Shown here one piece after another: positions 1-21,191 of a stretch of DNA of 21,627 nucleotides (its first letter is position 1; the number at the start of each line of letters is the position of its first letter). This stretch comes from a virus (lineage: Duplodnaviria > Heunggongvirae > Uroviricota > Caudoviricetes). The notes under the pieces are model-generated. The model was given only the letters and a program-made list of their open reading frames with translations, was not told where the DNA came from and made no database searches. Position numbers and translations under genes: made by a program. Location: the IMG/VR virus record IMGVR_UViG_2859788636_000004. One strand, given 5' to 3'.

Positions 1-294
1 GTGGCGCACGTCTTCGGGGAACGCACTCTGGCCACACTGGAGCGTCTTCTGAGCCTGCTGTCGGCCTTTGAGGTCGTGGTATGGATGACGGATGGCTGGC
101 CGCTGTATGAATCACGCCTGAAGGGAAAGCTGCACGTTATCAGCAAGCGTTACACTCAGCGCATTGAGCGACATAATCTGAATCTGAGACAACATCTGGC
201 AAGGCTGGGACGGAAGTCACTGTCGTTCTCAAAATCGGTGGAGCTGCATGACAAGGTCATCGGGCATTATCTGAACATAAAACACTATCAGTAA
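1..294 (+). CDS. insB: IS1 transposase InsB, C-terminal fragment (5' end outside window)
   Basis: ORF translation ...[44 protein letters not shown]... matches the InsB C-terminus; 3 aa differences from the copy at 12479-12982. Confidence 0.85.
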
Positions 295-309
295 GTTGGA
301 GTCATTACC
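1..309 (+). mobile_element. IS1, 3' partial copy (window begins inside the element)
   Basis: Sequence 1-294 encodes the C-terminal 97 aa of InsB and is near-identical to 12704-12982 of the complete IS1 in this window; element ends with the IS1 terminal repeat ...AAGTTGGAGTCATTACC at 309. Confidence 0.9.
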
Positions 310-3714: not shown

Positions 3715-5139
3715 ATGAACACCGATAAACAAGTTTACCCACTGTATTACGAAGCAAAAAATGACAAAGTAAGAAAACGTCTCGGTATTAAAGGCGGTTT
3801 TTACTGGGCTGAAGCGAAAAAATTATCCATTGCCATCTCCCGTGGTGCTGTTGCGATTGACGATGCAGGCTACGATGAAGATGACTTTAAAAAACCTGTT
3901 CGCGTCAATTTGCCCGTTGTTGATGACCTCCCGCCAGAAGGCGTATTTGATACGGAATTCTGCAACCGTTACGAAAAAGGCGGGGAAGATGGCATCACAA
4001 TGGTATTTATCGCATCTTCTCCCTCTGTTCAGGACAAACCGGCCAGCACTGACAATACCAACGTCAACGGCGAAGACATGACAGAAATTGAGGAGAACAT
4101 GCTCCTGCCAGTTTCCGGTCAGGAACTGCCCATTCGCTGGCTTGCGCAACACGGCAGCGAAAAACCAGTAACGCACGTTTCACGCGACGAACTCCAGGCA
4201 TTACACATTGCTCGGGATGAAGAACTACCAGCTGTTACTGCCCTGGCTGTTTCCCACAAAACCAGCCTGCTCGATCCGCTGGAAATTCGCGATCTCCACA
4301 AACTGGTGCGTGATACTGACAGAGTTTTCCCTAATCCAGGCAATTCAAGCCTGGGGCTGATGACTGCTTTTTTCGAAGCATACATGGACGCAGACTACAC
4401 CGATCGCGGTCTGCTGACAAAAGAGTGGATGAAAGGAAATCGTGTTTCACGCATCACGCGCACGGCTTCCGGCGCTAATGCTGGCGGCGGGAACCTCACC
4501 GATCGCGGCGAAGGTTTCGTTCACGATCTGACGTCACTGGCGCGCGACGTAGCCACTGGCGTACTGGCTCGTTCAATGGACGTGGACATTTATAACCTTC
4601 ATCCGGCACACGCTAAACGTGTCGAGGAAATTATCGCTGAAAATAAACCGCCCTTTTCTGTTTTCCGCGACAAATTCATCACCATGCCTGGCGGGATGGA
4701 TTATTCCCGCGCCATCGTGGTTGCGTCAGTGAAAGAAGCACCGATTGGTATCGAGGTCATCCCCGCTCACGTCACTGAATATCTGAACAAGGTACTGACT
4801 GAAACCGATCATGCCAACCCTGATCCGGAAATCGTGGATATTGCCTGCGGTCGCTCCTCTGCCCCGATGCCGCAACGTGTAACAGAAGAAGGAAAACAGG
4901 ATGATGAAGAAAAAACGCAGCCATCTGGCGCAATGGCAGATGAACAGGCAACGGCTGAAACAATGGAACCGGATGCAACTGAACATCATCAGAACACGCA
5001 GCCGCTGGATGCTCAGTCACAGGTAAATTCTGTTGATGAGAAATATCAGGAACTACGGGCAGAACTCCATGAAGCCCGGAAAAACATTCCGCCCAAAAAT
5101 CCTGTCGATGCAGACAAATTACTGGCTGCCTTGAGGTAG
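3715..5139 (+). CDS. Hypothetical prophage protein, 474 aa, acidic C-terminal region; 3' end and stop codon lie in an IS600 end fragment
   Basis: Long uninterrupted ORF with ATG at 3715; internal repeated TDRG motif (YTDRGLL and NLTDRGEG) and a Gly-rich stretch; the last codons TTG-AGG-TAG overlap the IS600 left-end fragment starting at 5132. No family recognised from memory. Confidence 0.65.
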
Positions 5140-5143
5140 CCTG
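5132..5143 (+). repeat. Orphan 12-bp fragment identical to the first 12 bp of the IS600 left end
   Basis: TGAGGTAGCCTG equals bases 1-12 of the IS600 left end as seen in the copy at 19928; it directly abuts the right end of IS600 copy A. Confidence 0.5.
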
Positions 5144-5186
5144 TGAGGTGTACTGGCAATAGCGGACACTACCATTTGTTCTTTTT

Positions 5187-6005
5187 TTAAGCAGCCATCT
5201 GATGATATTTTTCCCTGAAGGCTGCCGGGGAGATATTCCCCAGACGAGAGTGACGACGCTGACGATTGTAGAAAATCTCAATGTATTCCCGTATTACTGA
5301 GGTGGCTTCATCCCGGTTATTAAAACGATAGTGGCTCAGGCTCTCATTTTTCAGCGTTCCCCAGAAGCTTTCCATCGGAGCGTTGTCGTAACAGTTACCT
5401 TTACGCGACATTGATGTTTTCAGACCAGACTGCTCCTGTATGACCCGGTAATCGTATGCGCAGTACTGTGAACCTCGATCAGAGTGGTGGATTAGCCCGG
5501 CAGGTGGGCGCTGGCTCCTGAGCGCCATAAACAGGGCTTTACCTGTCAGCTCTTTTGTCATGCGCTCTCCCATGGCGTAGCCGACAATTTCACACGTATA
5601 AACATCTTTGATGCCAGCGAGGTACAACCATCCCTCCTGTGTGGCAACATACGTCAGGTCCGCCACCCAGACCTGATTTGGTGCTGTAGGAGCGAACGTC
5701 TGGTTCAGCAGATTTGGCGCAACTGGCAGATTGTGGTTCGGGTTCGTAGTCGCTCTGAACTTGCGTTTCTGCTTACAGCGTAGCCTCAGCTCCTTACGAA
5801 GACGTGCCAGTCGGTCACGACCAACGATGATGCCATTCTCTGCCAGCTCCGTCTGGAGCCGCCGGGTTCCATATGTTTCGCGAGTGCGGATATGTGCCAC
5901 CTTAATCTCCAGTTTTAGCCGCTCATCACTTTGTTTTCTGTCTGAGGGTTCATGCTGTACCCAGTTGTAATAACCGCTCCTGGATACACCAAATACCTGA
6001 CACAT
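5187..6005 (-). CDS. IS600 OrfB transposase (DDE)
   Basis: 272-aa ORF, IS3-family integrase-core sequence (...IHHSDRGSQYCAYDY...SRKGNCYDNAPMESFWGTLK...). Confidence 0.9.
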   Translation of the reverse strand: MCQVFGVSRSGYYNWVQHEPSDRKQSDERLKLEIKVAHIRTRETYGTRRLQTELAENGIIVGRDRLARLRKELRLRCKQKRKFRATTNPNHNLPVAPNLLNQTFAPTAPNQVWVADLTYVATQEGWLYLAGIKDVYTCEIVGYAMGERMTKELTGKALFMALRSQRPPAGLIHHSDRGSQYCAYDYRVIQEQSGLKTSMSRKGNCYDNAPMESFWGTLKNESLSHYRFNNRDEATSVIREYIEIFYNRQRRHSRLGNISPAAFREKYHQMAA

Positions 6006-6040
6006 CGCTTCAATGGGAAATTGTTGTCGCCATTGTTCGA

Positions 6041-6343
6041 TTAACGCGTATTTTTCAGCGACTCCTGTGCAAAATACGCTGTTGCTTTTTTTAATATATC
6101 TCGCTCAAGGCGAGCTTCATTTAACGCCTTACGCAGTTGCAGAATTTCAGATTCCAGTTCAGCCACCGTGCGGGAACCAGGAGTACCGAGCCCTTTTCTG
6201 GCGGCGGTAACCCATTGTCCTAAAGTGCCTTCAGGAAGAGATAATCGGGAAGCGCCTTCACTGATCGAAAGTTGATTTTCAAGAACCGTTCTGACAGCTT
6301 CGGCTTTGAACTCTTTAGAGTAACGTTGGGTTTTTCTGCTCAT
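6041..6343 (-). CDS. IS600 OrfA (HTH transposase subunit)
   Basis: 100-aa [37 protein letters not shown]... with leucine-zipper-like C-terminus; A7G slippery run near its 3' end. Confidence 0.9.
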
Positions 6344-6407
6344 TATTAGCTCCTTCTGATGCCATTCTATTTCAGGAAGGAGTGTCCGTTAAACTCAGGC
6401 TACCTCA

Positions 6408-8094: not shown

Positions 8095-8169
<75 letters not shown>

Positions 8170-8172
8170 ATA

Positions 8173-8248
<76 letters not shown>

Positions 8249-8250
8249 GC

Positions 8251-8327
8251 TGGCCCACCACCGAGGACTCGAACCTCGCACCGTCAACTTAGAAGGTTGA
8301 TGCTCTATCCGGATGAGCTAGTGGTGG
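8251..8327 (-). tRNA. tRNA-Arg (anticodon UCU), atypical C1:G72 acceptor pair
   Basis: Reverse complement CCACCACTAGCTCATCCGGATAGAGCATCAACCTTCTAAGTTGACGGTGCGAGGTTCGAGTCCTCGGTGGTGGGCCA; all four stems pair; anticodon loop CTTCTAA. Confidence 0.7.
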
Positions 8328-8328
8328 T

Positions 8329-8405
8329 TGGTGGCCCTTGCTGGACTTGAACCAGCGACCTGGCGATTATGAGTCGCTCGCTCTGACCAACTGAGCTAAA
8401 GGGCC
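8329..8405 (-). tRNA. tRNA with anticodon CAU, tRNA-Ile2 (lysidine)-like; Met cannot be excluded
   Basis: Reverse complement GGCCCTTTAGCTCAGTTGGTCAGAGCGAGCGACTCATAATCGCCAGGTCGCTGGTTCAAGTCCAGCAAGGGCCACCA; anticodon stem-loop GCGACTCATAATCGC and T-arm resemble E. coli ileX/ileY. Confidence 0.75.
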
Positions 8406-8517: not shown

Positions 8518-9166
8518 CTTTCAAGTGTCCATGTCTGCTATTCGCCTCGCGATACAGCTTTGCGAAGCTTACCGGAATTGAAGCAGTTTATGTGCAAAAA
8601 TGCAAGAACTTTTTTAAAGCTGCATCAACCTTTCCACCAGTTTATCTCTGCGAACAACAAACCAACCATTGGCTCTCGCCAGTTCCAGCCATGACTCAAG
8701 GGAAATAACAATATCATCATCCCGTAACTGAATTGTGGAAACAGTGACACCGCCTCTCTGATAACAGAGAACTCGCGTGTCGTAACTTTTCTGGCATGAA
8801 ACTGGCGTTGACGGATCCCTTTGACTGAAATAGCAGTCTTCCAGTTTTTCGAACACATCCCACGCCTGATCGGTTTCGAGCATTTTGCCGTGGCGTGCTG
8901 CGCCTCGTTCTGTCCAGAGGATGAGGGAGCGGGCTTTGGGTGAAACTGGATTTTGTGAGTAGTTTAAAGCGACCCGCAATTCTTTAAGGTCATTACCAAC
9001 AACTTTGAAAAAGTGTTTCCCTTCAACGAAGCGTACTTTGTTCTCATGATGATTCTGGCGAATACGCACCGGCTCAGTGCCGTAAAGCTGCGCCAAAAGT
9101 TCGGTGGTAATAACAGGAATCTGTGAGGTGTACTGGCAATAGCGGACACTACCATTTGTTCTTTTT

Positions 9167-9985
9167 TTAAGCAGCCATCTGATGATATTTTTCCCTGAAG
9201 GCTGCCGGGGAGATATTCCCCAGACGAGAGTGACGACGCTGACGATTGTAGAAAATCTCAATGTATTCCCGTATTACTGAGATGGCTTCATCCCGGTTAT
9301 TAAAACGATAGTGGCTCAGGCTCTCATTTTTCAGCGTTCCCCAGAAGCTTTCCATCGGAGCGTTGTCGTAACAGTTACCTTTACGCGACATTGATGTTTT
9401 CAGACCAGACTGCTCCTGTATGACCCGGTAATCGTATGCGCAGTACTGTGAACCTCGATCAGAGTGGTGGATTAGCCCGGCAGGTGGGCGCTGGCTCCTG
9501 AGCGCCATAAACAGGGCTTTACCTGTCAGCTCTTTTGTCATGCGCTCTCCCATGGCGTAGCCGACAATTTCACACGTATAAACATCTTTGATGCCAGCGA
9601 GGTACAACCATCCCTCCTGTGTGGCAACATACGTCAGGTCCGCCACCCAGACCTGATTTGGTGCTGTAGGAGCGAACGTCTGGTTCAGCAGATTTGGCGC
9701 AACTGGCAGATTGTGGTTCGGGTTCGTAGTCGCTCTGAACTTGCGTTTCTGCTTACAGCGTAGCCTTAGCTCCTTACGAAGACGTGCCAGTCGGTCACGA
9801 CCAACGATGATGCCATTCTCTGCCAGCTCCGTCTGGAGCCGCCGGGTTCCATATGTTTCGCGAGTGCGGATATGTGCCACCTTAATCTCCAGTTTTAGCC
9901 GCTCATCACTTTGTTTTCTGTCTGAGGGTTCATGCTGTACCCAGTTGTAATAACCGCTCCTGGATACACCAAATACCTGACACAT
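9167..9985 (-). CDS. IS600 OrfB transposase
   Basis: 272 aa; one amino-acid difference from the copy A protein. Confidence 0.9.
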   Translation of the reverse strand: MCQVFGVSRSGYYNWVQHEPSDRKQSDERLKLEIKVAHIRTRETYGTRRLQTELAENGIIVGRDRLARLRKELRLRCKQKRKFRATTNPNHNLPVAPNLLNQTFAPTAPNQVWVADLTYVATQEGWLYLAGIKDVYTCEIVGYAMGERMTKELTGKALFMALRSQRPPAGLIHHSDRGSQYCAYDYRVIQEQSGLKTSMSRKGNCYDNAPMESFWGTLKNESLSHYRFNNRDEAISVIREYIEIFYNRQRRHSRLGNISPAAFREKYHQMAA

Positions 9986-10020
9986 CGCTTCAATGGGAAA
10001 TTGTTGTCGCCATTGTTCGA

Positions 10021-10323
10021 TTAACGCGTATTTTTCAGCGACTCCTGTGCAAAATACGCTGTTGCTTTTTTTAATATATCTCGCTCAAGGCGAGCTTCAT
10101 TTAACGCCTTACGCAGTTGCAGAATTTCAGATTCCAGTTCAGCCACCGTGCGGGAACCAGGAGTACCGAGCCCTTTTCTGGCGGCGGTAACCCATTGTCC
10201 TAAAGTGCCTTCAGGAAGAGATAATCGGGAAGCGCCTTCACTGATCGAAAGTTGATTTTCAAGAACCGTTCTGACAGCTTCGGCTTTGAACTCTTTAGAG
10301 TAACGTTGGGTTTTTCTGCTCAT
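10021..10323 (-). CDS. IS600 OrfA
   Basis: 100 aa, identical to the copy A OrfA. Confidence 0.9.
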   Translation of the reverse strand: MSRKTQRYSKEFKAEAVRTVLENQLSISEGASRLSLPEGTLGQWVTAARKGLGTPGSRTVAELESEILQLRKALNEARLERDILKKATAYFAQESLKNTR

Positions 10324-10600
10324 TATTAGCTCCTTCTGATGCCATTCTATTTCAGGAAGGAGTGTCCGTTAAACTCAGGCTACCTCACTGGTTATGGGTG
10401 ATCGGGGAGAGAGTTTCAACAGAGATTTGAGTGGTCATAACGATAACTCCGTACATTTGGAAATTATCGCCACCGACGACGCCAATCGAACTGGTGGCGA
10501 ACTGTGCAGGGTTGGCGTAACCGGGTACGGAAACCGGCGAGCCTTTCGGCTCCCCCACACAGCCCGCCATAAATCGCGAATGTGACTGTGCAAACGATAT

Positions 10601-10623
10601 GAAAAAAGACGCGGGCGCGTCTC
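10601..10623 (-). terminator. tR'-like intrinsic terminator just downstream of the late promoter
   Basis: On the minus strand, AGACGC-GCCC-GCGTCT hairpin followed by TTTTTT; lies about 55-75 nt downstream of the predicted start site. Confidence 0.55.
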
Positions 10624-10684
10624 ATATCGCTCCGTAAACATCCGGGACGCCAATCCCGACGCCAGATTTTGCTGGCGCGTGAGG

Positions 10685-10714
10685 AATATAGCCCCGGATA
10701 ACAGATTGAGTCAA
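10685..10714 (-). promoter_or_regulatory. PR'-like late promoter (candidate Q-utilisation region)
   Basis: On the minus strand, TTGACT (-35, overlapping the Q stop codon), 18-nt spacer, TATATT (-10). The promoter plus a short terminated leader right after a Q-like gene is the classical lambdoid arrangement. Confidence 0.5.
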
Positions 10715-12151: not shown

Positions 12152-12284
12152 CGTAGTTCTCCGCTGGCGCAGTAGAATGGGTGTTCAGCCCGTTATGTAG
12201 TATACCAGAATTAATGCCAATACTAACAGGGTAATGCTGCCAACTTACTGATTTAGTGTATGATGGTGATTTTAAGGTGCTTGC

Positions 12285-12560
12285 GTGGCTTCCATTTCCA
12301 TCAGATGTCCTTCCTGCTCCGCTACTGAAGGCGTGGTGCGTAACGGCAAAAGCACTGCCGGACATCAGCGCTATCTCTGCTCTCATTGCCGTAAAACATG
12401 GCAACTACAGTTCACTTACACCGCCTCTCAGCCCGGTACGCACCAGAAAATCATTGATATGGCCATGAATGGCGTCGGATGTCGCGCCAGTGCACGCATT
12501 ATGGGCGTTGGCCTCAACACGGTTTTACGTCACTTAAAAAACTCAGGCCGCAGTCGGTAA
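12285..12560 (+). CDS. insA: IS1 InsA
   Basis: [66 protein letters not shown]...; GTG start; A6C slippery motif TTAAAAAACTC near its 3' end. Confidence 0.9.
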
Positions 12561-12982
12561 CCTCGCGCATACAACCGGGCAGTGATGTGATTGTCTGCGC
12601 TGAAATGGACGAACATTGGGGCTACGTCGGTGCTAAATCACGTCAGCGCTGGCTGTTTTACGCGTATGACAGGATACGGAGGACGGTTGTGGCGCACGTC
12701 TTCGGTGAACGCACTCTGGCCACACTGGAGCGTCTTCTGAGCCTGCTGTCGGCCTTTGAGGTCGTGGTATGGATGACGGATGGCTGTCCGCTGTATGAAT
12801 CACGCCTGAAGGGAAAGCTGCACGTTATCAGCAAGCGTTACACTCAGCGCATTGAGCGACATAATCTGAATCTGAGACAACATCTGGCAAGGCTGGTACG
12901 GAAGTCACTGTCGTTCTCAAAATCGGTGGAGCTGCATGACAAGGTCATCGGGCATTATCTGAACATAAAACACTATCAGTAA
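12479..12982 (+). CDS. insB: IS1 InsB reading frame (expressed as InsAB' by -1 frameshift)
   Basis: 167-aa frame overlapping insA; C-terminus matches the partial copy at 1-294. Confidence 0.9.
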
Positions 12983-12999
12983 GTTGGAGTCATTACCTA

Positions 13000-13251
13000 C
13001 TAACAGGATGCTCTGACTCGCAATTCATCCAGCAGTTTATCATTTCCCATAATGTCACTTACCCTCATCGGTAAAAAAATTGCCTTTCGACCATTACGAT
13101 ACATTATTGATTTTGGGGTTTCAGGGAAGTAATCCATTTCGACTATAACTGACAGGTCATCACGACGTATGACTGCGTATTTGCTACTAAATAGTTTCTT
13201 TATTTTTTCCACGATGCCCCCAGGTTTATAAGTACAAACGGTTATATCCAC
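13000..13251 (-). CDS. Hypothetical protein (83 aa), AT-rich accessory gene
   Basis: ORF MDITVCTYKPGGIVEKIKKLFSSKYAVIRRDDLSVIVEMDYFPETPKSIMYRNGRK...; its stop codon TAG lies inside the right copy of the IS1 target-site duplication; AT-rich upstream region 13252-13380. Confidence 0.45.
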   Translation of the reverse strand: MDITVCTYKPGGIVEKIKKLFSSKYAVIRRDDLSVIVEMDYFPETPKSIMYRNGRKAIFLPMRVSDIMGNDKLLDELRVRASC

Positions 13252-13395
13252 ATAGAGACAAAAATATTAATCTGATAAATATTTATTTCACGCCGTATAT
13301 TTGATTGTTTAATGTGCAAGTACAATGACTTTTATTTTTTGTTGTGTATATAATCAAATATATGGTTATTTTTCACCCTGCGTATTCAGCACGCA

Positions 13396-13419
13396 ACAAA
13401 AAACCCGCCGAAGCGGGTT
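13396..13419 (-). terminator. Rho-independent terminator at the 3' end of the hok/mok transcript
   Basis: On the minus strand, AACCCGC-TTCG-GCGGGTT hairpin followed by a T-run. Confidence 0.6.
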
Positions 13420-13487
13420 TAGTGCGGGTGCGTTGAGGATGCCTGACACATGAGAGGTGGCGAGGGATTTCTCCCCCGCCTGGTCTC

Positions 13488-13643
13488 TTACTCCTCAGGT
13501 TCGTAAGCTGTGAAGACAGCGACCTCCGTCTGGCCGGTTCGGATTCGTACCTCGCAGAGGTCTTTCCTCGTTACCAGTGCCGTCACTATGACGGTTAAAC
13601 AGATGACGATCAGGGCGATTAACATCGCCTTTTGCTGCTTCAT
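13488..13643 (-). CDS. hokD: Hok/Gef-family type I toxin (51 aa), closest recalled paralog HokD (RelF)
   Basis: MKQQKAMLIALIVICLTVIVTALVTRKDLCEVRIRTGQTEVAVFTAYEPEE; SD AAGGAGA 7 nt upstream of the ATG. Family assignment is secure; the paralog name is from memory. Confidence 0.85.
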   Translation of the reverse strand: MKQQKAMLIALIVICLTVIVTALVTRKDLCEVRIRTGQTEVAVFTAYEPEE

Positions 13644-13700
13644 AGCCTGCTTCTCCTTGCCTTTCGGCACGTAAGAGGCTAACCTACATTTGTGAGACAT
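13488..13700 (-). CDS. mok-like overlapping reading frame (N-terminally extended Hok frame)
   Basis: In-frame upstream extension MSHKCRLASYVPKGKEKQA- has the same pattern as MokC (MLNTCRVPLTDRKVKEKRA-). Confidence 0.55.
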   Translation of the reverse strand: MSHKCRLASYVPKGKEKQAMKQQKAMLIALIVICLTVIVTALVTRKDLCEVRIRTGQTEVAVFTAYEPEE

Positions 13701-13981
13701 AGATTGGGCCTCAGATTAATGTTAAGCGTCTTGCAGGACGCGTAATGTTAACTGGGGCTTTTCTCTGTCTGCCTTACAGTGGCATGCCCGAGGCAGACAG
13801 CCTCAAGCACCCGCAGCAATCTTACCGATACCGATAAGAAAACGCTATTTTTTATTGCCAGCACCTTCTATCCAGGCTAATTTATCTGCGTCAGAACGGC
13901 GCAATGCGCTCGCCTGAGATACGTTTACTTGCCATGGTAACAACAGGTAACGGCAATTGCTGTTTCTGTTTTGTTTCCTTC

Positions 13982-14012
13982 AAAAACCCCGGACCATCAA
14001 TCCGGGGTTTTT
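13982..14012. terminator. Bidirectional intrinsic terminator
   Basis: AAAAA-CCCCGGA-CCATCAA-TCCGGGG-TTTTT: a 7-bp GC-rich stem flanked by an A-run and a T-run, so it is valid on either strand. Confidence 0.6.
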
Positions 14013-14017
14013 GTTTG

Positions 14018-14101
14018 TTAACCCCAACGGCAAATCGAATACACCACCAGCGCCACCGCCATCGCAATTCCTACCGTGGTGAATGCCTCAGGCCAGGTCA
14101 T
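14018..14101 (-). CDS. Candidate 27-aa hydrophobic peptide
   Basis: ATG overlaps the TGA stop of the DUF551 gene (ATGA); translation MTWPEAFTTVGIAMAVALVVYSICRWG has a single hydrophobic segment; ends immediately before the bidirectional terminator. Confidence 0.3.
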   Translation of the reverse strand: MTWPEAFTTVGIAMAVALVVYSICRWG

Positions 14102-14463
14102 TGATTCACCTCCTGCGGTGGTTCCGGTAGCGGCATCCAGTGAGTTGAGCTCTCTACTTCAACGCCGTCTTTGTCCACAAAAGCCATCTTATTCCCGCCA
14201 CGAGTGGGGCAAAAAACCTTATCCCAGGAACCGGGGAATACATTCCCGAGATCATCGAGAAGAATCACATCGCAATATTCAGCAGGAACTGCATCACTAC
14301 AGCTTATCCAGCCAGCCAGAGTTACCGGAGAGTTGCCAGCCTTACGCATGGCCATTTCCACGATTTCAACCATATCTCCTGGTGGAATTTTACAAAGTTG
14401 CCCAATACATTTCTGCTGCCTGGCATATTCGAGAATGTGCTCCAGTTTGGTTCGATTAATCAT
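14098..14463 (-). CDS. DUF551-domain phage protein
   Basis: C-terminus ...GWISCSDAVPAEYCDVILLDDLGNVFPGSWDK...VESSTHWMPLPEPP matches the DUF551 signature. Confidence 0.7.
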   Translation of the reverse strand: MINRTKLEHILEYARQQKCIGQLCKIPPGDMVEIVEMAMRKAGNSPVTLAGWISCSDAVPAEYCDVILLDDLGNVFPGSWDKVFCPTRGGNKMAFVDKDGVEVESSTHWMPLPEPPQEVNQ

Positions 14464-15128
14464 TATTTATCTCCCTTAAGCATGGCAGCGCGGCAGGCGT
14501 TCCAGCCATCAACATAATCAAACGTATTACTATCGTTTGGCCCGATTTCATCCGGCACTATCGGCTCTGGTTGGATAGTGACGTTGGCAAAGGCAGCACG
14601 CAAACCGGTTTTAATTTCTTCGATTTCATCAGAGCCAAGCGATGAATCTGACAGTGCGTGATGGAATGCGTAAGCCATGTCGTCGTTTACTGCAACCGGC
14701 ACTGCCGGCGCTGCGTAAAGCGGTGTTATATCTGCCCGAAAATCACATGCTTTATGCAGTCGTACCCAACGCTCAACTTCCGCTTTGTAAAAATATATAG
14801 CAGTGAACGTATTAGATTCCTGGTCAACTTGAGTAAACGTCACCTTCCACGCTACAGCTACGGCTTTCCATCCATCAGGTTGTCGCATTCGCGGGGCAGC
14901 ATAAAGCTCATGCATTCCATCAGGCAGCGAGTGACCCACATACTCACCGAACCCGTCAATACACATGCCCCCATCTTCAACAATGCATTCCGCTACAGGC
15001 TCTGCTTCCAGTGATGCCAGAGCGATAAGCGCCAGTTCACGAATTTCACCGCCGTCTATATCGTCAATATCATCGCGGCCAGAAATGTTAGCCAGCCATT
15101 GCAGTCGCTCTTTGGTAATAGTAGTCAT
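14463..15128 (-). CDS. Hypothetical phage protein (221 aa)
   Basis: Long ORF with start and stop overlapping neighbouring genes (15125-15128 and 14463-14465), typical of a packed phage operon; no family recognised. Confidence 0.6.
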   Translation of the reverse strand: MTTITKERLQWLANISGRDDIDDIDGGEIRELALIALASLEAEPVAECIVEDGGMCIDGFGEYVGHSLPDGMHELYAAPRMRQPDGWKAVAVAWKVTFTQVDQESNTFTAIYFYKAEVERWVRLHKACDFRADITPLYAAPAVPVAVNDDMAYAFHHALSDSSLGSDEIEEIKTGLRAAFANVTIQPEPIVPDEIGPNDSNTFDYVDGWNACRAAMLKGDK

Positions 15129-17397: not shown

Positions 17398-18235
17398 GGT
17401 CTGTTACCCCCTGAAGCCTAGCGGGATCGCACTGTCCGGCAACGAGACGGTGTTAACCTGTCGGAGCAACGTCTCAGGCCGAACACCTTTCGGCGCGAAC
17501 AGACCCTGGTATTCATTGGCGATGCTGTGTCGAATCACCTGCTCAGGTGTAAAACCCTGCTGACGGAATTTTTCCAGTTCCCGTATCGCCCCGTTAGCGC
17601 CCAGCTCCGTTCGAATCGGTTTTCGCAATGCCTGCCTGAACTGGACCCACTCATGCCAGAGTGTTTCTGGCAACCAGTCGGGCAGATCAACTGACAACGG
17701 GTCAAATTTTTTCTGGCGAACAGCCCCACCGATAACCAGAATTCCCTGCTCGGTGTGCCTTGCGATATCACTGCGCCGCAAGACACATATCCCGGTTTCA
17801 ACAGCACCGATTTTGAGCAGTGATTTCTGTCGCGGAGAATTTCGGTCAAGCTCGATCCCACACCGGACACCGTTCCTGTCAGTCACGACGATATCAATCC
17901 GCCCTCCGCAACCGTCACCACGCTCTGGCACCGGATACTCACGACAGACATCCAGGCCAGCAGCCTGCAACGCAACCACCGCAGAATTACAAAATTCCGC
18001 TGCAGTACCGCCAGATAATCTCCCCTCAAGCACTCCAGCCACAAAATCCCGAAACTCCCTTCCGGAAGGGAAGGGTTTGGGATGGGTTAGATCTGTTTTT
18101 AGATCTTTATCTGTATCTTTATTAGTTGCCTTTGTGTTGGCATCTAGACTGGCCCCCTGAATCTCCAGACAACCAGTATCACTTATTTAAGTGATAGTCT
18201 TAATACTAGTTTTTAGACTAGTCATTGGAGAACAG

Positions 18236-18601
18236 ATGATTGATGTCTTAGGGCCGGAGAAACGCAGACGGCGTACCACACAGGAAAAGATCGCAATTGT
18301 TCAGCAGAGCTTTGAACCGGGGATGACGGTCTCCCTCGTTGCCCGGCAACATGGTGTAGCAGCCAGCCAGTTATTTCTCTGGCGTAAGCAATACCAGGAA
18401 GGAAGTCTTACTGCTGTGGCCGCCGGAGAACAGGTTGTTCCTGCCTCTGAACTTGCTGCCGCCATGAAGCAGATTAAAGAACTCCAGCGCCTGCTCGGCA
18501 AGAAAACGATGAAAAATGAACTCCTCAAAGAAGCCGTTGAATATGGACGGGCAAAAAAGTGGATAGCGCACGCGCCCTTATTGCCCGGGGATGGGGAGTA
18601 A
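18236..18601 (+). CDS. insC: IS2 OrfA (InsC)
   Basis: Protein identical to the copy at 1569-1934. Confidence 0.9.
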
Positions 18602-19464
18602 GCTTAGTCAGCCGTTGTCTCCGGGTGTCGCGTGCGCAGTTGCACGTCATTCTCAGACGAACCGATGACTGGATGGATGGCCGCCGCAGTCGTCACACTG
18701 ATGATACGGATGTGCTTCTCCGTATACACCATGTTATCGGAGAGCTGCCCACGTATGGTTATCGTCGGGTATGGGCGCTGCTTCGCAGACAGGCAGAACT
18801 TGATGGTATGCCTGCGATCAATGCCAAACGTGTTTACCGGCTCATGCGCCAGAATGCGCTGTTGCTTGAGCGAAAACCTGCTGTACCGCCATCGAAACGG
18901 GCACATACAGGCAGAGTGGCCGTGAAAGAAAGCAATCAGCGATGGTGCTCTGACGGGTTCGAGTTCTGCTGTGATAACGGAGAGAGACTGCGTGTCACGT
19001 TCGCGCTGGACTGCTGTGATCGTGAGGCACTGCACTGGGCGGTGACTACCGGCGGCTTCAACAGTGAAACAGTACAGGACGTCATGCTGGGAGCAGTGGA
19101 ACGCCGCTTCGGCAACGATCTTCCGTCGTCTCCAGTGGAGTGGCTGACGGATAATGGTTCATGCTACCGGGCTAATGAAACACGCCAGTTCGCCCGGATG
19201 TTGGGACTTGAACCGAAGAACACGGCGGTGCGGAGTCCGGAGAGTAACGGAATAGCAGAGAGCTTCGTGAAAACGATAAAGCGTGACTACATCAGTATCA
19301 TGCCCAAACCAGACGGGTTAACGGCAGCAAAGAACCTTGCAGAGGCGTTCGAGCATTATAACGAATGGCATCCGCATAGTGCGCTGGGTTATCGCTCGCC
19401 ACGGGAATATCTGCGGCAGCGGGCTTGTAATGGGTTAAGTGATAACAGATGTCTGGAAATATAG
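18559..19464 (+). CDS. insD: IS2 OrfB (InsD)
   Basis: Protein identical to the copy at 1892-2797. Confidence 0.9.
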
Positions 19465-19991
19465 GGGCAAATCCAGCATCATGTTCGAACACCACTCCAA
19501 CATCTGTTTGAACACCTGTTAAATTTCTCTCTTGTTTTGTTTGAACATCTGCTTCCTTTCTGCTTCTTCTGGCCTGAACAGATGCTTTTCCTGCGGCTGA
19601 TTTTTTGGTTAATTTTTCTCTGACAGATGCCAGATCTTCCTCAATCCGAAGATGCATCCATTCGTCGCCGTTATCACAAAAAAACTCCCGCAAGGATGGT
19701 TCAACATCAACCCATCGCTCGTTAGTCAGACGGGCAATTTTTGCCAACCTGTTTTTGGGTATTGGCTTTCCTGTTTGCCAGTAATTGAACATCAGCAACA
19801 AATACGCGCCGTGCTCCTCTGCTGACAAATGCATGGTGTCAGCCAGGTAATCAGCTATGTACAGTTGCATGTATGGTAATGCGGCCATAATTGCCCCGTA
19901 TGATGCTACCCGGTTGCTTAGAATAAGTGAGGTAGCCTGAGTTTAACGGACACTCCTTCCTGAAATAGAATGGCATCAGAAGGAGCTAATA

Positions 19992-20294
19992 ATGAGCAGA
20001 AAAACCCAACGTTACTCTAAAGAGTTCAAAGCCGAAGCTGTCAGAACGGTTCTTGAAAATCAACTTTCGATCAGTGAAGGCGCTTCCCGATTATCCCTTC
20101 CTGAAGGCACTTTAGGACAATGGGTTACCGCCGCCAGAAAAGGGCTCGGTACTCCTGGTTCCCGCACGGTGGCTGAACTGGAATCTGAAATTCTGCAACT
20201 GCGTAAGGCGTTAAATGAAGCTCGCCTTGAGCGAGATATATTAAAAAAAGCAACAGTGTATTTTGCACAGGAGTCGCTGAAAAATACGCGTTAA
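19992..20294 (+). CDS. IS600 OrfA
   Basis: 100 aa; one substitution (A to V) relative to copies A and B. Confidence 0.9.
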   Translation: MSRKTQRYSKEFKAEAVRTVLENQLSISEGASRLSLPEGTLGQWVTAARKGLGTPGSRTVAELESEILQLRKALNEARLERDILKKATVYFAQESLKNTR

Positions 20295-20329
20295 TCGAAC
20301 AATGGCGACAACAATTTCCCATTGAAGCG

Positions 20330-21148
20330 ATGTGTCAGGTATTTGGTGTATCCAGGAGCGGTTATTACAACTGGGTACAGCATGAACCCTCAGACAGAAA
20401 ACAAAGTGATGAGCGGCTAACACTGGAGATTAAGGTGGCACATATCCGCACTCGCGAAACATATGGAACCCGGCGGCTCCAGACGGAGCTGGCAGAGAAT
20501 GGCATCATCGTTGGTCGTGACCGACTGGCACGTCTTCGTAAGGAGCTGAGGCTACGCTGTAAGCAGAAACGCAAGTTCAGAGCGACTACGAACCCGAACC
20601 ACAATCTGCCAGTTGCGCCAAATCTGCTGAACCAGACGTTCGCTCCTACAGCACCAAATCAGGTCTGGGTGGCGGACCTGACGTATGTTGCCACACAGGA
20701 GGGATGGTTGTACCTCGCTGGCATCAAAGATGTTTATACGTGTGAAATTGTCGGCTACGCCATGGGAGAGCGCATGACAAAAGAGCTGACAGGTAAAGCC
20801 CTGTTTATGGCGCTCAGGAGCCAGCGCCCACCTGCCGGGCTAATCCACCACTCTGATCGAGGTTCACAGTACTGCGCATACGATTACCGGGTCATACAGG
20901 AGCAGTCTGGTCTGAAAACATCAATGTCGCGTAAAGGTAACTGTTACGACAACGCTCCGATGGAAAGCTTCTGGGGAACGCTGAAAAATGAGAGCCTGAG
21001 CCACTATCGTTTTAATAACCGGGATGAAGCCATCTCAGTAATACGGGAATACATTGAGATTTTCTACAATCGTCAGCGTCGTCACTCTCGTCTGGGGAAT
21101 ATCTCCCCGGCAGCCTTCAGGGAAAAATATCATCAGATGGCTGCTTAA
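20330..21148 (+). CDS. IS600 OrfB transposase
   Basis: 272 aa; a few substitutions relative to copies A and B. Confidence 0.9.
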   Translation: MCQVFGVSRSGYYNWVQHEPSDRKQSDERLTLEIKVAHIRTRETYGTRRLQTELAENGIIVGRDRLARLRKELRLRCKQKRKFRATTNPNHNLPVAPNLLNQTFAPTAPNQVWVADLTYVATQEGWLYLAGIKDVYTCEIVGYAMGERMTKELTGKALFMALRSQRPPAGLIHHSDRGSQYCAYDYRVIQEQSGLKTSMSRKGNCYDNAPMESFWGTLKNESLSHYRFNNRDEAISVIREYIEIFYNRQRRHSRLGNISPAAFREKYHQMAA

Positions 21149-21191
21149 AAAAAGAACAAATGGTAGTGTCCGCTATTGCCAGTACACCTCA

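Follow-up and report, generated by a model that had tools for sequence, protein, structure and literature searches.

The window (the whole 21,627-nucleotide stretch of viral DNA analysed here) contains one hok locus of the kind described below, on the minus strand. The toxin gene runs from 13643 to 13488 (51 codons plus stop) behind a Shine-Dalgarno GGAG at 13656-13653. Its product had been called a 51-amino-acid Hok-family toxin in a first-pass annotation, and it matches Pfam PF01848 HOK_GEF with E = 3e-23 (81.6 bits against a cutoff of 22) and phrog_251, "MokW-like host killing", with E = 8e-33. The protein is 100% identical to HokD of K-12, which was toxic in expression tests (bioRxiv 10.1101/2025.08.07.668861). 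Its Tyr47 codon lies in a TACG motif (13505-13502, minus strand), and the surrounding TTACGAA is invariant in alignment A2, a set of 24 loci from Escherichia, Kluyvera, Pseudocitrobacter and Erwinia together with an R1-type plasmid, which also served for the helix counts given below. In K-12, TadA carries out A-to-I editing at the TACG of hokD mRNA, changing Tyr to Cys at a level of about 6% (PMC5630033, PMC12214031). Judged by its letters, the TACG at Tyr47 here is the motif of the TadA editing site known in hokD mRNA.

A second frame, mok, begins with an ATG at 13700 and continues in frame with hok to the common stop (13700-13488, 70 amino acids), in line with the mok-like in-frame leader described in the first-pass annotation. 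It is preceded by a Shine-Dalgarno GAGG (13712-13709) that is invariant in alignment A2 and is sequestered by the ucb box in the predicted full-length fold of the mRNA. The mok ATG is kept in 23 of the 24 loci. The annotation of mokW in 933W is of the same kind. Among relatives, however, the frame differs (0, +1 or +2), and neither frame nor peptide is conserved, which fits the view that mok matters through being translated and not through its peptide.

Intrinsic terminators flank the locus, within a nucleotide of where they had first been placed (13982-14012 and 13396-13419). The upstream hairpin (13981-14013) has a 13-bp stem with 7 G-C pairs and predicted stabilities of -23.0 (minus strand) and -20.7 kcal/mol (plus strand). 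There is a U-run on either strand, so that the hairpin is bidirectional: as modelled, it would end the minus-strand transcript of a DUF551 gene and a 27-amino-acid ORF, and would block readthrough on the plus strand. The hok terminator (13420-13395, minus strand; -13.7 kcal/mol) consists of an 8-bp stem at 13420-13401 with 5 G-C pairs and a UUCG loop, followed by six T to 13395, which give a six-U tract in the RNA. An isrK-like match on the hok 3' UTR (30.6 bits against a threshold of 50) was rejected as a resemblance of a hairpin plus terminator to that model.

The spacer between the upstream terminator and the hok promoter (13980-13825, minus strand) lies outside the conserved module. A query with 165 nt of it (13821-13985) gave matches in 30 of 5426 E. 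coli genomes, with an annotation in none of them. The spacer had no match in the phage collection, its Rfam matches were all sub-threshold and came mostly from the terminator hairpin, and its folding z-score was only -1.86.

On the same strand, the gene order is DnaC-like, Ren-like, DUF551 (14098-14463), the 27-amino-acid ORF, hok, rem-like, NinB-like/DUF1367, DUF1364 and a Q-like antiterminator. The 27-amino-acid ORF belongs to no significant PHROG or NCBIfam family, and neither relB nor relE is present among the upstream ORFs, as the first-pass annotation had stated. These genes mark the setting as the nin-type region of a lambdoid prophage of Shigella flexneri that is riddled with IS elements, and the 1.5 kb compared (13000-14500) is 100% identical to Shigella flexneri SFBU1023 (CP182556.1) and to CP178302.1. 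In this prophage, recE is truncated at 474 of 877 residues, and the window holds at least eight IS copies: two IS2, three of one IS3-family element, another IS3-family element and two IS1. The host prophage is thus clearly defective. The IS1 nearest to hok (12230-12997), which has a clean 9-bp target duplication, TACTAACAG, is inserted at the rem-like stop codon, 398 bp past the end of the hok terminator. We considered this IS1 as an inactivating insertion of the type found in K-12 hokA, hokC and hokE and rejected it, because it stands past the terminator and leaves the module untouched.

Predicted promoters, transcripts and Sok RNA

A consensus promoter scan of 13000-14400 flagged neither a hok nor a sok promoter. 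It returned just two AT-rich matches, both on the plus strand at 13272-13354, which is no excess over chance. The two promoters were therefore placed by homology instead. In about 50 hok loci from several genera, which have unrelated upstream sequences, a TAnnAT hexamer stands exactly 6 nt upstream of a GGGTGC/GGCGC start. This fixed distance places the start of the hok transcript in the window at 13812 ± 1, with the predicted -10, TAAGAT, at 13824-13819 (minus strand). Most relatives have TAGAAT at this site, and the TAAGAT of the window is a rare variant. There is no recognisable -35 for hok; together with the rare -10, this means that hok transcription could be very low. Position 13812 is also the first position of the match to the Rfam model discussed below and aligns with the start of the R1-type hok transcript, and the R1 numbering G4/C5/T6 is consistent with it (PMC9841398).

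From this start, the predicted full-length hok mRNA extends to the T-tract of the terminator (13812-13396, about 415 nt), with a predicted transcribed leader that measures about 112 nt as far as mok and about 169 nt as far as hok. A leader of about 280 bp had been proposed in the first-pass annotation. That figure is right for the stretch between the upstream terminator and the mok ATG, but the transcribed leader is only about 170 nt because homology starts at 13820 and the -10 hexamer lies 6 nt before 13812; the remaining 165 nt or so (13821-13985) are the spacer upstream of the promoter.

On the plus strand, the predicted sok promoter (13657-13685) comprises a -35 TTGCCT at 13657-13662, a 17-nt spacer and a -10 TAACCT at 13680-13685. 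It is a poor match to the consensus (7/12), and it is identical to the promoter of 933W/Sp5 from the -35 through the -10. In Sp5, mutation of the sok -10 (the same hexamer; primer YO-421) led to loss of antitoxin activity, Sok supplied in trans gave partial restoration, and both RNAs were seen on Northern blots (PMC8621323). Experiments have thus established hokW-sokW as a toxin-antitoxin pair (Takada et al. 2021, PMC8621323).

In 933W, sokW is annotated opposite the mokW start. Transfer of its coordinates through alignments A1 and A2 puts a predicted Sok RNA (about 71 nt) on the plus strand at 13692-13762. The first-pass annotation had expected Sok on this strand at around 13650-13760, and the predicted gene and its promoter, both found by homology to sokW, agree with that placement. 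This RNA is predicted to fold at -29.2 kcal/mol, with a single-stranded 5' tail of 14 nt ahead of a long hairpin and CUUUU, and its differences from sokW fall almost entirely in the 5' tail.

Pairing elements of the hok mRNA and a model for their action

The fold-back and upstream pairing elements of the family, for which the first-pass annotation had proposed a check by alignment to plasmid R1 and to chromosomal hok loci, are present in the sequence. The tac element, GGGUGCUUGAGG, forms the 5' end of the predicted mRNA (13812-13801, minus strand) and pairs with 13438-13426 in the full-length fold and with 13760-13754 in the truncated fold. Its full-length partner is fbi, CCUCAACGCACCC (13438-13426, minus strand), with which it makes 12 bp interrupted by one bulge. 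The ucb element, an anti-Shine-Dalgarno box AAGCCCC (13760-13754, minus strand), pairs with either the mok Shine-Dalgarno region or tac, depending on the fold. A 9-bp 3' stem-loop, GGCGGGGGA-GAAA-UCCCUCGCC (13480-13459, minus strand), is the predicted stop for 3' processing and would, by its counterpart in R1, mark the end of the truncated active mRNA (PMC9841398). None of the elements of the module showed an inactivating lesion.

The full-length RNA, folded to minimum free energy, joins nt 1-12 to nt 375-387, which is the tac/fbi interaction, and nt 99-105 in the mok Shine-Dalgarno region to nt 55-61 in the ucb region, the ucb box itself contributing 13758-13754. When the RNA is cut after the 3' stem-loop, nt 1-8 fold instead onto nt 53-59, the ucb box. 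The duplex of tac with the 3' UTR has a predicted energy of -21.1 kcal/mol, against -12.8 ± 2.2 kcal/mol for shuffled 3' UTRs, and 3 of 2000 shuffles reach it. Control folds of 933W hokW and of the R1-type locus show the same 5'-3' tac/fbi pairing. The truncated form of the R1-type control, however, folds into a metastable 5' hairpin and does not show the textbook tac/ucb stem; single-sequence minimum-free-energy folds of truncated forms are therefore weak evidence.

The helices were also counted across the 24 loci of alignment A2. The tac/fbi helix is paired in 96.9% of cells, with one GC-to-AU compensatory pair; the ucb/Shine-Dalgarno helix in 93%, with one AU-to-GC double change; and the 3' hairpin in 92%, with one compensatory pair. 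All three exceed the slid controls, which give 43-55%. The tac/ucb helix is paired in 98%, but its pairs never vary, so that the comparison speaks neither for nor against it. Both tac and ucb are invariant among 49 distinct leaders. A hairpin of the mok Shine-Dalgarno with dcb, predicted for the truncated mRNA, is paired in only 66% across relatives; the comparison gives it no support, and this helix is not claimed.

The match to the Rfam covariance model RF01794 covers the minus strand at 13812-13638 with 118.1 bits against a threshold of 59 (E = 1e-26). It includes all 157 model positions and ends at the hok AUG. A score so far above the threshold means that the module is not a chance resemblance. 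The model carries the name "sok" in Rfam, yet the strand that it matches here is the hok-sense leader; a reader who takes the name at face value risks assigning the wrong strand.

Positions 13824-13395 of the minus strand very probably form a hok/mok/sok type I toxin-antitoxin module that is complete and self-contained and belongs to the prophage-borne hokD/hokW lineage. The present analysis shows the sequence elements, their predicted pairings and the conservation of these pairings. The autonomy of the module is indicated by the terminators on both sides, by the conserved hok -10 and by the exact limits of cross-genus homology. The first-pass annotation had suggested an autonomous hok/sok-type module, and the presence of tac, fbi, ucb with the mok Shine-Dalgarno, the 3' hairpin, and the Sok promoter and hairpin makes this a well-founded reading of the sequence.

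How the module would act can be modelled on the plasmid R1 paradigm and on hokW. By analogy with these relatives, its transcripts, their processing and the toxicity of the product are probably like those described for them. A weak promoter with a -10 only would produce a stable hok mRNA of about 415 nt. In this full-length form, tac at the 5' end would pair with fbi near the 3' end and ucb would lock the mok Shine-Dalgarno, so that the RNA would be neither translated nor bound by Sok. Slow 3' trimming to the stem-loop at 13480-13459 would then remove fbi, allowing tac to pair with ucb and freeing the mok Shine-Dalgarno. Ribosomes translating mok could now reach the hok start and make Hok, a membrane-depolarising peptide. 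The 71-nt Sok, which we propose to be abundant and unstable, would use its 5' tail to pair around the mok start, blocking mok translation and leading to RNase III cleavage. Since Sok would normally block mok, Hok would be made only once Sok transcription stops. In a decayed prophage, such a module could serve as leftover help for lysis at induction (as for hokW), could stabilise the region, or could do nothing.

Known relatives and distribution of the module

The closest characterised relative is hokW-mokW-sokW of 933W and Sakai prophage 5 (AF125520), with 92.5% nucleotide identity over the module of about 400 nt. The two loci are alike in tac, ucb, fbi, the in-frame mok and the sok -35 and -10, and their Sok hairpins are one loop base apart. 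Upstream, both have a DUF551-type gene and then a 27-amino-acid hydrophobic ORF. They differ in four C-terminal residues of Hok, in 6 of the first 17 nt of the Sok 5' tail, and in the hok -10, which is TAAGAT here and TAGAAT in hokW. In addition, the window has an upstream terminator with the 165-nt spacer and its own downstream terminator, and the genes downstream are not alike.

The hokD gene of K-12 (relF, the third gene of relBEF in the Qin prophage) encodes an identical Hok protein. Its nucleotide identity of 98%, however, extends only over 13657-13399, that is, the hok Shine-Dalgarno, the coding sequence, the 3' hairpin, fbi and the terminator. Downstream, the two loci have a rem-like and then a DUF1367/NinB-like gene in common. 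Upstream, K-12 hokD lacks the hok promoter, tac, ucb, mok and sok and has relE-relB in their place, and the breakpoint is the sok -35. The locus in the window, with its full leader, is therefore not in the relBE-hokD arrangement, a point on which the first-pass annotation was right. K-12 hokD, which has been described as inactivated by rearrangement, is then the truncated exception, and the complete module is the usual form.

Plasmid R1 hok/sok (parB) has the same order of elements: -10, tac, 5' hairpin, ucb, Sok target, mok, hok, 3' hairpin, fbi and terminator hairpin. The leader of about 169 nt to hok and the predicted tac/fbi pairing are also alike, whereas nucleotide similarity is low away from the conserved elements. 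The Sok hairpin is longer here than in R1, with a Sok of about 71 nt against the 64 nt of R1 Sok. R1 hok/sok resides on a plasmid, where post-segregational killing has been demonstrated. At the protein level, HokW and R1 Hok are 44% identical (PMC8621323).

The chromosomal loci hokA, hokB, hokC (gef) and hokE of E. coli are members of this family too, with a leader organised in the same way, but they are distinct lineages at fixed chromosomal sites, not in prophages. The hokC-type loci (L017-L024) align over the whole module at about 74-75% identity with tac/fbi kept, and their Sok hairpin is shorter than the one here.

Homology to other genera and species (other Escherichia species, Kluyvera, Pseudocitrobacter, Erwinia) starts at about 13820 and stops at 13426, which is exactly at fbi; in closer relatives, it runs on to about 13399. 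The full 431-nt module, covered to at least 80%, is present in 4005 of 5426 complete E. coli genomes (74%), where it is mostly annotated as hokD, and in 77 of the 80 viral contigs that encode the identical Hok protein. The module is thus an ordinary one, of a system and a lineage that are already known: it has been described as hokW/mokW/sokW in 933W (GenBank AF125520) and as "hokD" in thousands of genomes. The first-pass description of a complete-looking locus was borne out but missed this earlier description and annotation. Genome annotation covers the hok coding sequence alone, with no entry for mok, Sok or the regulatory RNA elements; hence the locus seemed unexplained to a naive reader. 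As a discovery, the module has little weight, given that hok/sok is a textbook system and that this lineage was tested by experiment in 2021.

Alternative readings and Sok alleles

There are at least two alternatives to a working, self-contained module. The module could be structurally intact yet silent, kept by recent descent, with hok too weakly transcribed or never activated. The rare TAAGAT -10, the missing -35 and the replacement of the usual upstream sequence by the rare 165-nt spacer all point in this direction. So does the condition of the prophage, which IS1, IS2 and IS3-family elements have heavily degraded and in which recE is truncated. In L008, a paralog from the same genome, tac is damaged, a sign that decay happens, and chromosomal hok loci have been reported, in older work, as incapable of killing. 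Set against these points, no lesion that would inactivate the module turned up in any element, its Hok is identical to a toxic protein, and its sok promoter is identical to a functional one. In addition, tac, ucb and fbi are intact, tac and ucb show no variation in the 49 leaders, and the IS1 with its clean 9-bp duplication lies well past the terminator. A silent relic is the main alternative, and we regard it as improbable.

The other alternative, that hok is not autonomous but is the distal gene of a phage early-right (nin) transcript, as hokD is third in K-12 relBEF, appears very remote to us. It draws on the common orientation of hok with the upstream replication, Ren-like and DUF551 genes and on the lack of a recognisable hok -35. 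In lambdoid phages, N-type antitermination could also carry transcription past the upstream hairpin. However, a terminator of -23 kcal/mol with a U-tract separates these genes from hok, and the -10 stands at its fixed 6 nt in about 50 loci in spite of their unrelated upstream sequences. R1-type action, moreover, requires tac to be the 5' end of the RNA (PMC9841398), and in Sp5 hokW mRNA is present before induction and does not rise later (PMC8621323). Expression as part of an operon is thus unlikely, given the upstream terminator, the -10 at fixed distance and the need for tac as the 5' end; a self-contained hok/mok/sok module is the reading that we prefer.

The one aspect of the locus that may be worth more work is the allelic diversity of the Sok recognition segment, and a recent Hok survey contains no analysis of Sok. 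We tentatively raise the possibility, which we hold to be somewhat less likely than its opposite, that this segment is an allelic specificity cassette of prophage hokD/hokW modules. If so, there would be selection for Sok RNAs that do not cross-react, and co-resident or incoming prophages would be unable to silence one another's toxin.

Upstream of the identical Hok, the 16 nt that pair with the Sok 5' tail (13707-13692) occur as 11-12 alleles in the 49 distinct leaders. This target segment has 0.8-0.9 bit per column, and its alleles are discrete and reshuffled against the remaining variants of the leader. One Shigella flexneri genome has three hokD-type copies with three alleles, which differ at 6 to 8 of 17 positions; by their sequences, the three suggest a diversification of Sok specificity.

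Alleles of the Sok recognition segment and the frame of mok

In 49 distinct leaders that all precede a 100% identical Hok protein (among loci L059-L138 of our collection from other genomes and contigs), both tac, the element at the 5' end of the predicted hok mRNA, and ucb, the anti-Shine-Dalgarno box, are without variation. In these same leaders, the 16 nt predicted to pair with the single-stranded tail of the Sok antisense RNA fall into 11-12 discrete alleles. The predicted target of the Sok 5' tail lies at 13692-13707 of the window, on the minus strand. One Shigella genome carries three co-resident copies (L010, L012 and L016) with three different alleles, which are 6 to 8 of 17 positions apart.

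The mok leader ORF was compared in alignment A2, which comprises 24 loci. Its start codon is kept in 23 of them, and its frame relative to hok is variable: mok is in frame with hok in the window, in the Stx2 phage 933W and in hokC-type loci, is shifted to frame +1 in Rac-442, L013, L014 and five Kluyvera-like loci, and is a short +2 ORF in three loci. Since the frame varies across these loci, the Mok peptide itself is not conserved.

The region between the DUF551 gene and hok

A 27-aa hydrophobic ORF (MTWPEAFTTVGIAMAVALVVYSICRWG; 14018-14101, minus strand) lies upstream of the hok module. It is preceded by a strong Shine-Dalgarno sequence (AGGAGGTG), and its start overlaps the stop codon of the DUF551 gene in an ATGA arrangement. 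The ORF has no match among the PHROG and NCBIfam families, and the closest E. coli record leaves it unannotated. In 933W, an ORF of 27 aa is present at the same position upstream of hokW, differing from that of the window by 4 synonymous and 6 non-synonymous codons.

In the window, a 165-nt spacer (13821-13985) separates the hok promoter from the upstream terminator, whereas in 933W the 27-aa ORF ends ~45 nt before hok. The spacer was not found in the phage collection, and of 5426 complete E. coli genomes only 30 carry it, unannotated in every case.

Insertion sequences and other RNA genes of the prophage

The prophage is heavily degraded by insertion sequences, yet the hok module is intact. 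A complete IS1 of 768 bp (12230-12997), flanked by a 9-bp target duplication (TACTAACAG), is inserted at the stop codon of the rem-like gene (13000-13251), and a second, partial IS1 occupies the start of the window (1-300). There are also two identical copies of IS2 (1477-2797 and 18144-19464) and three copies of one IS3-family element (5141-6407, 9121-10409 and 19906-21191). The recE gene for exonuclease VIII (3715-5139) is also incomplete, being cut off at residue 474 of 877.

Two pairs of isrK and C4-antisense RNAs, one on the plus strand at 690-878 and one on the minus strand at 10490-10691, all score above the Rfam thresholds, as does a c4-a1b1 target at 10639-10691. One pair is directly downstream of a Q-like antiterminator gene and the other adjoins the gene of a Rha-family regulator; they probably represent RNA modules of the phage immunity or anti-Q type. 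The prophage also contains four clustered tRNA genes (8098-8405, minus strand), flanked by IS copies and the Q/late-gene region.

hok loci in other genomes

The genome that holds an exact match to the window (L007) also holds a paralog, L008, with a damaged tac (AATGACTGCATGTGG). Near-identical hokD-type sequences (L020, L025 and L058) come from very short contigs assigned to Acinetobacter idrijaensis and Xanthomonas pisi and from a metagenome-assembled contig of 3 kb; they most likely reflect E. coli or phage contamination of those assemblies. Tandem arrangements were also seen: an Enterobacteriaceae genome (L031) has two full modules ~560 bp apart, and a Photorhabdus temperata locus (L039) has three repeats, each containing tac.
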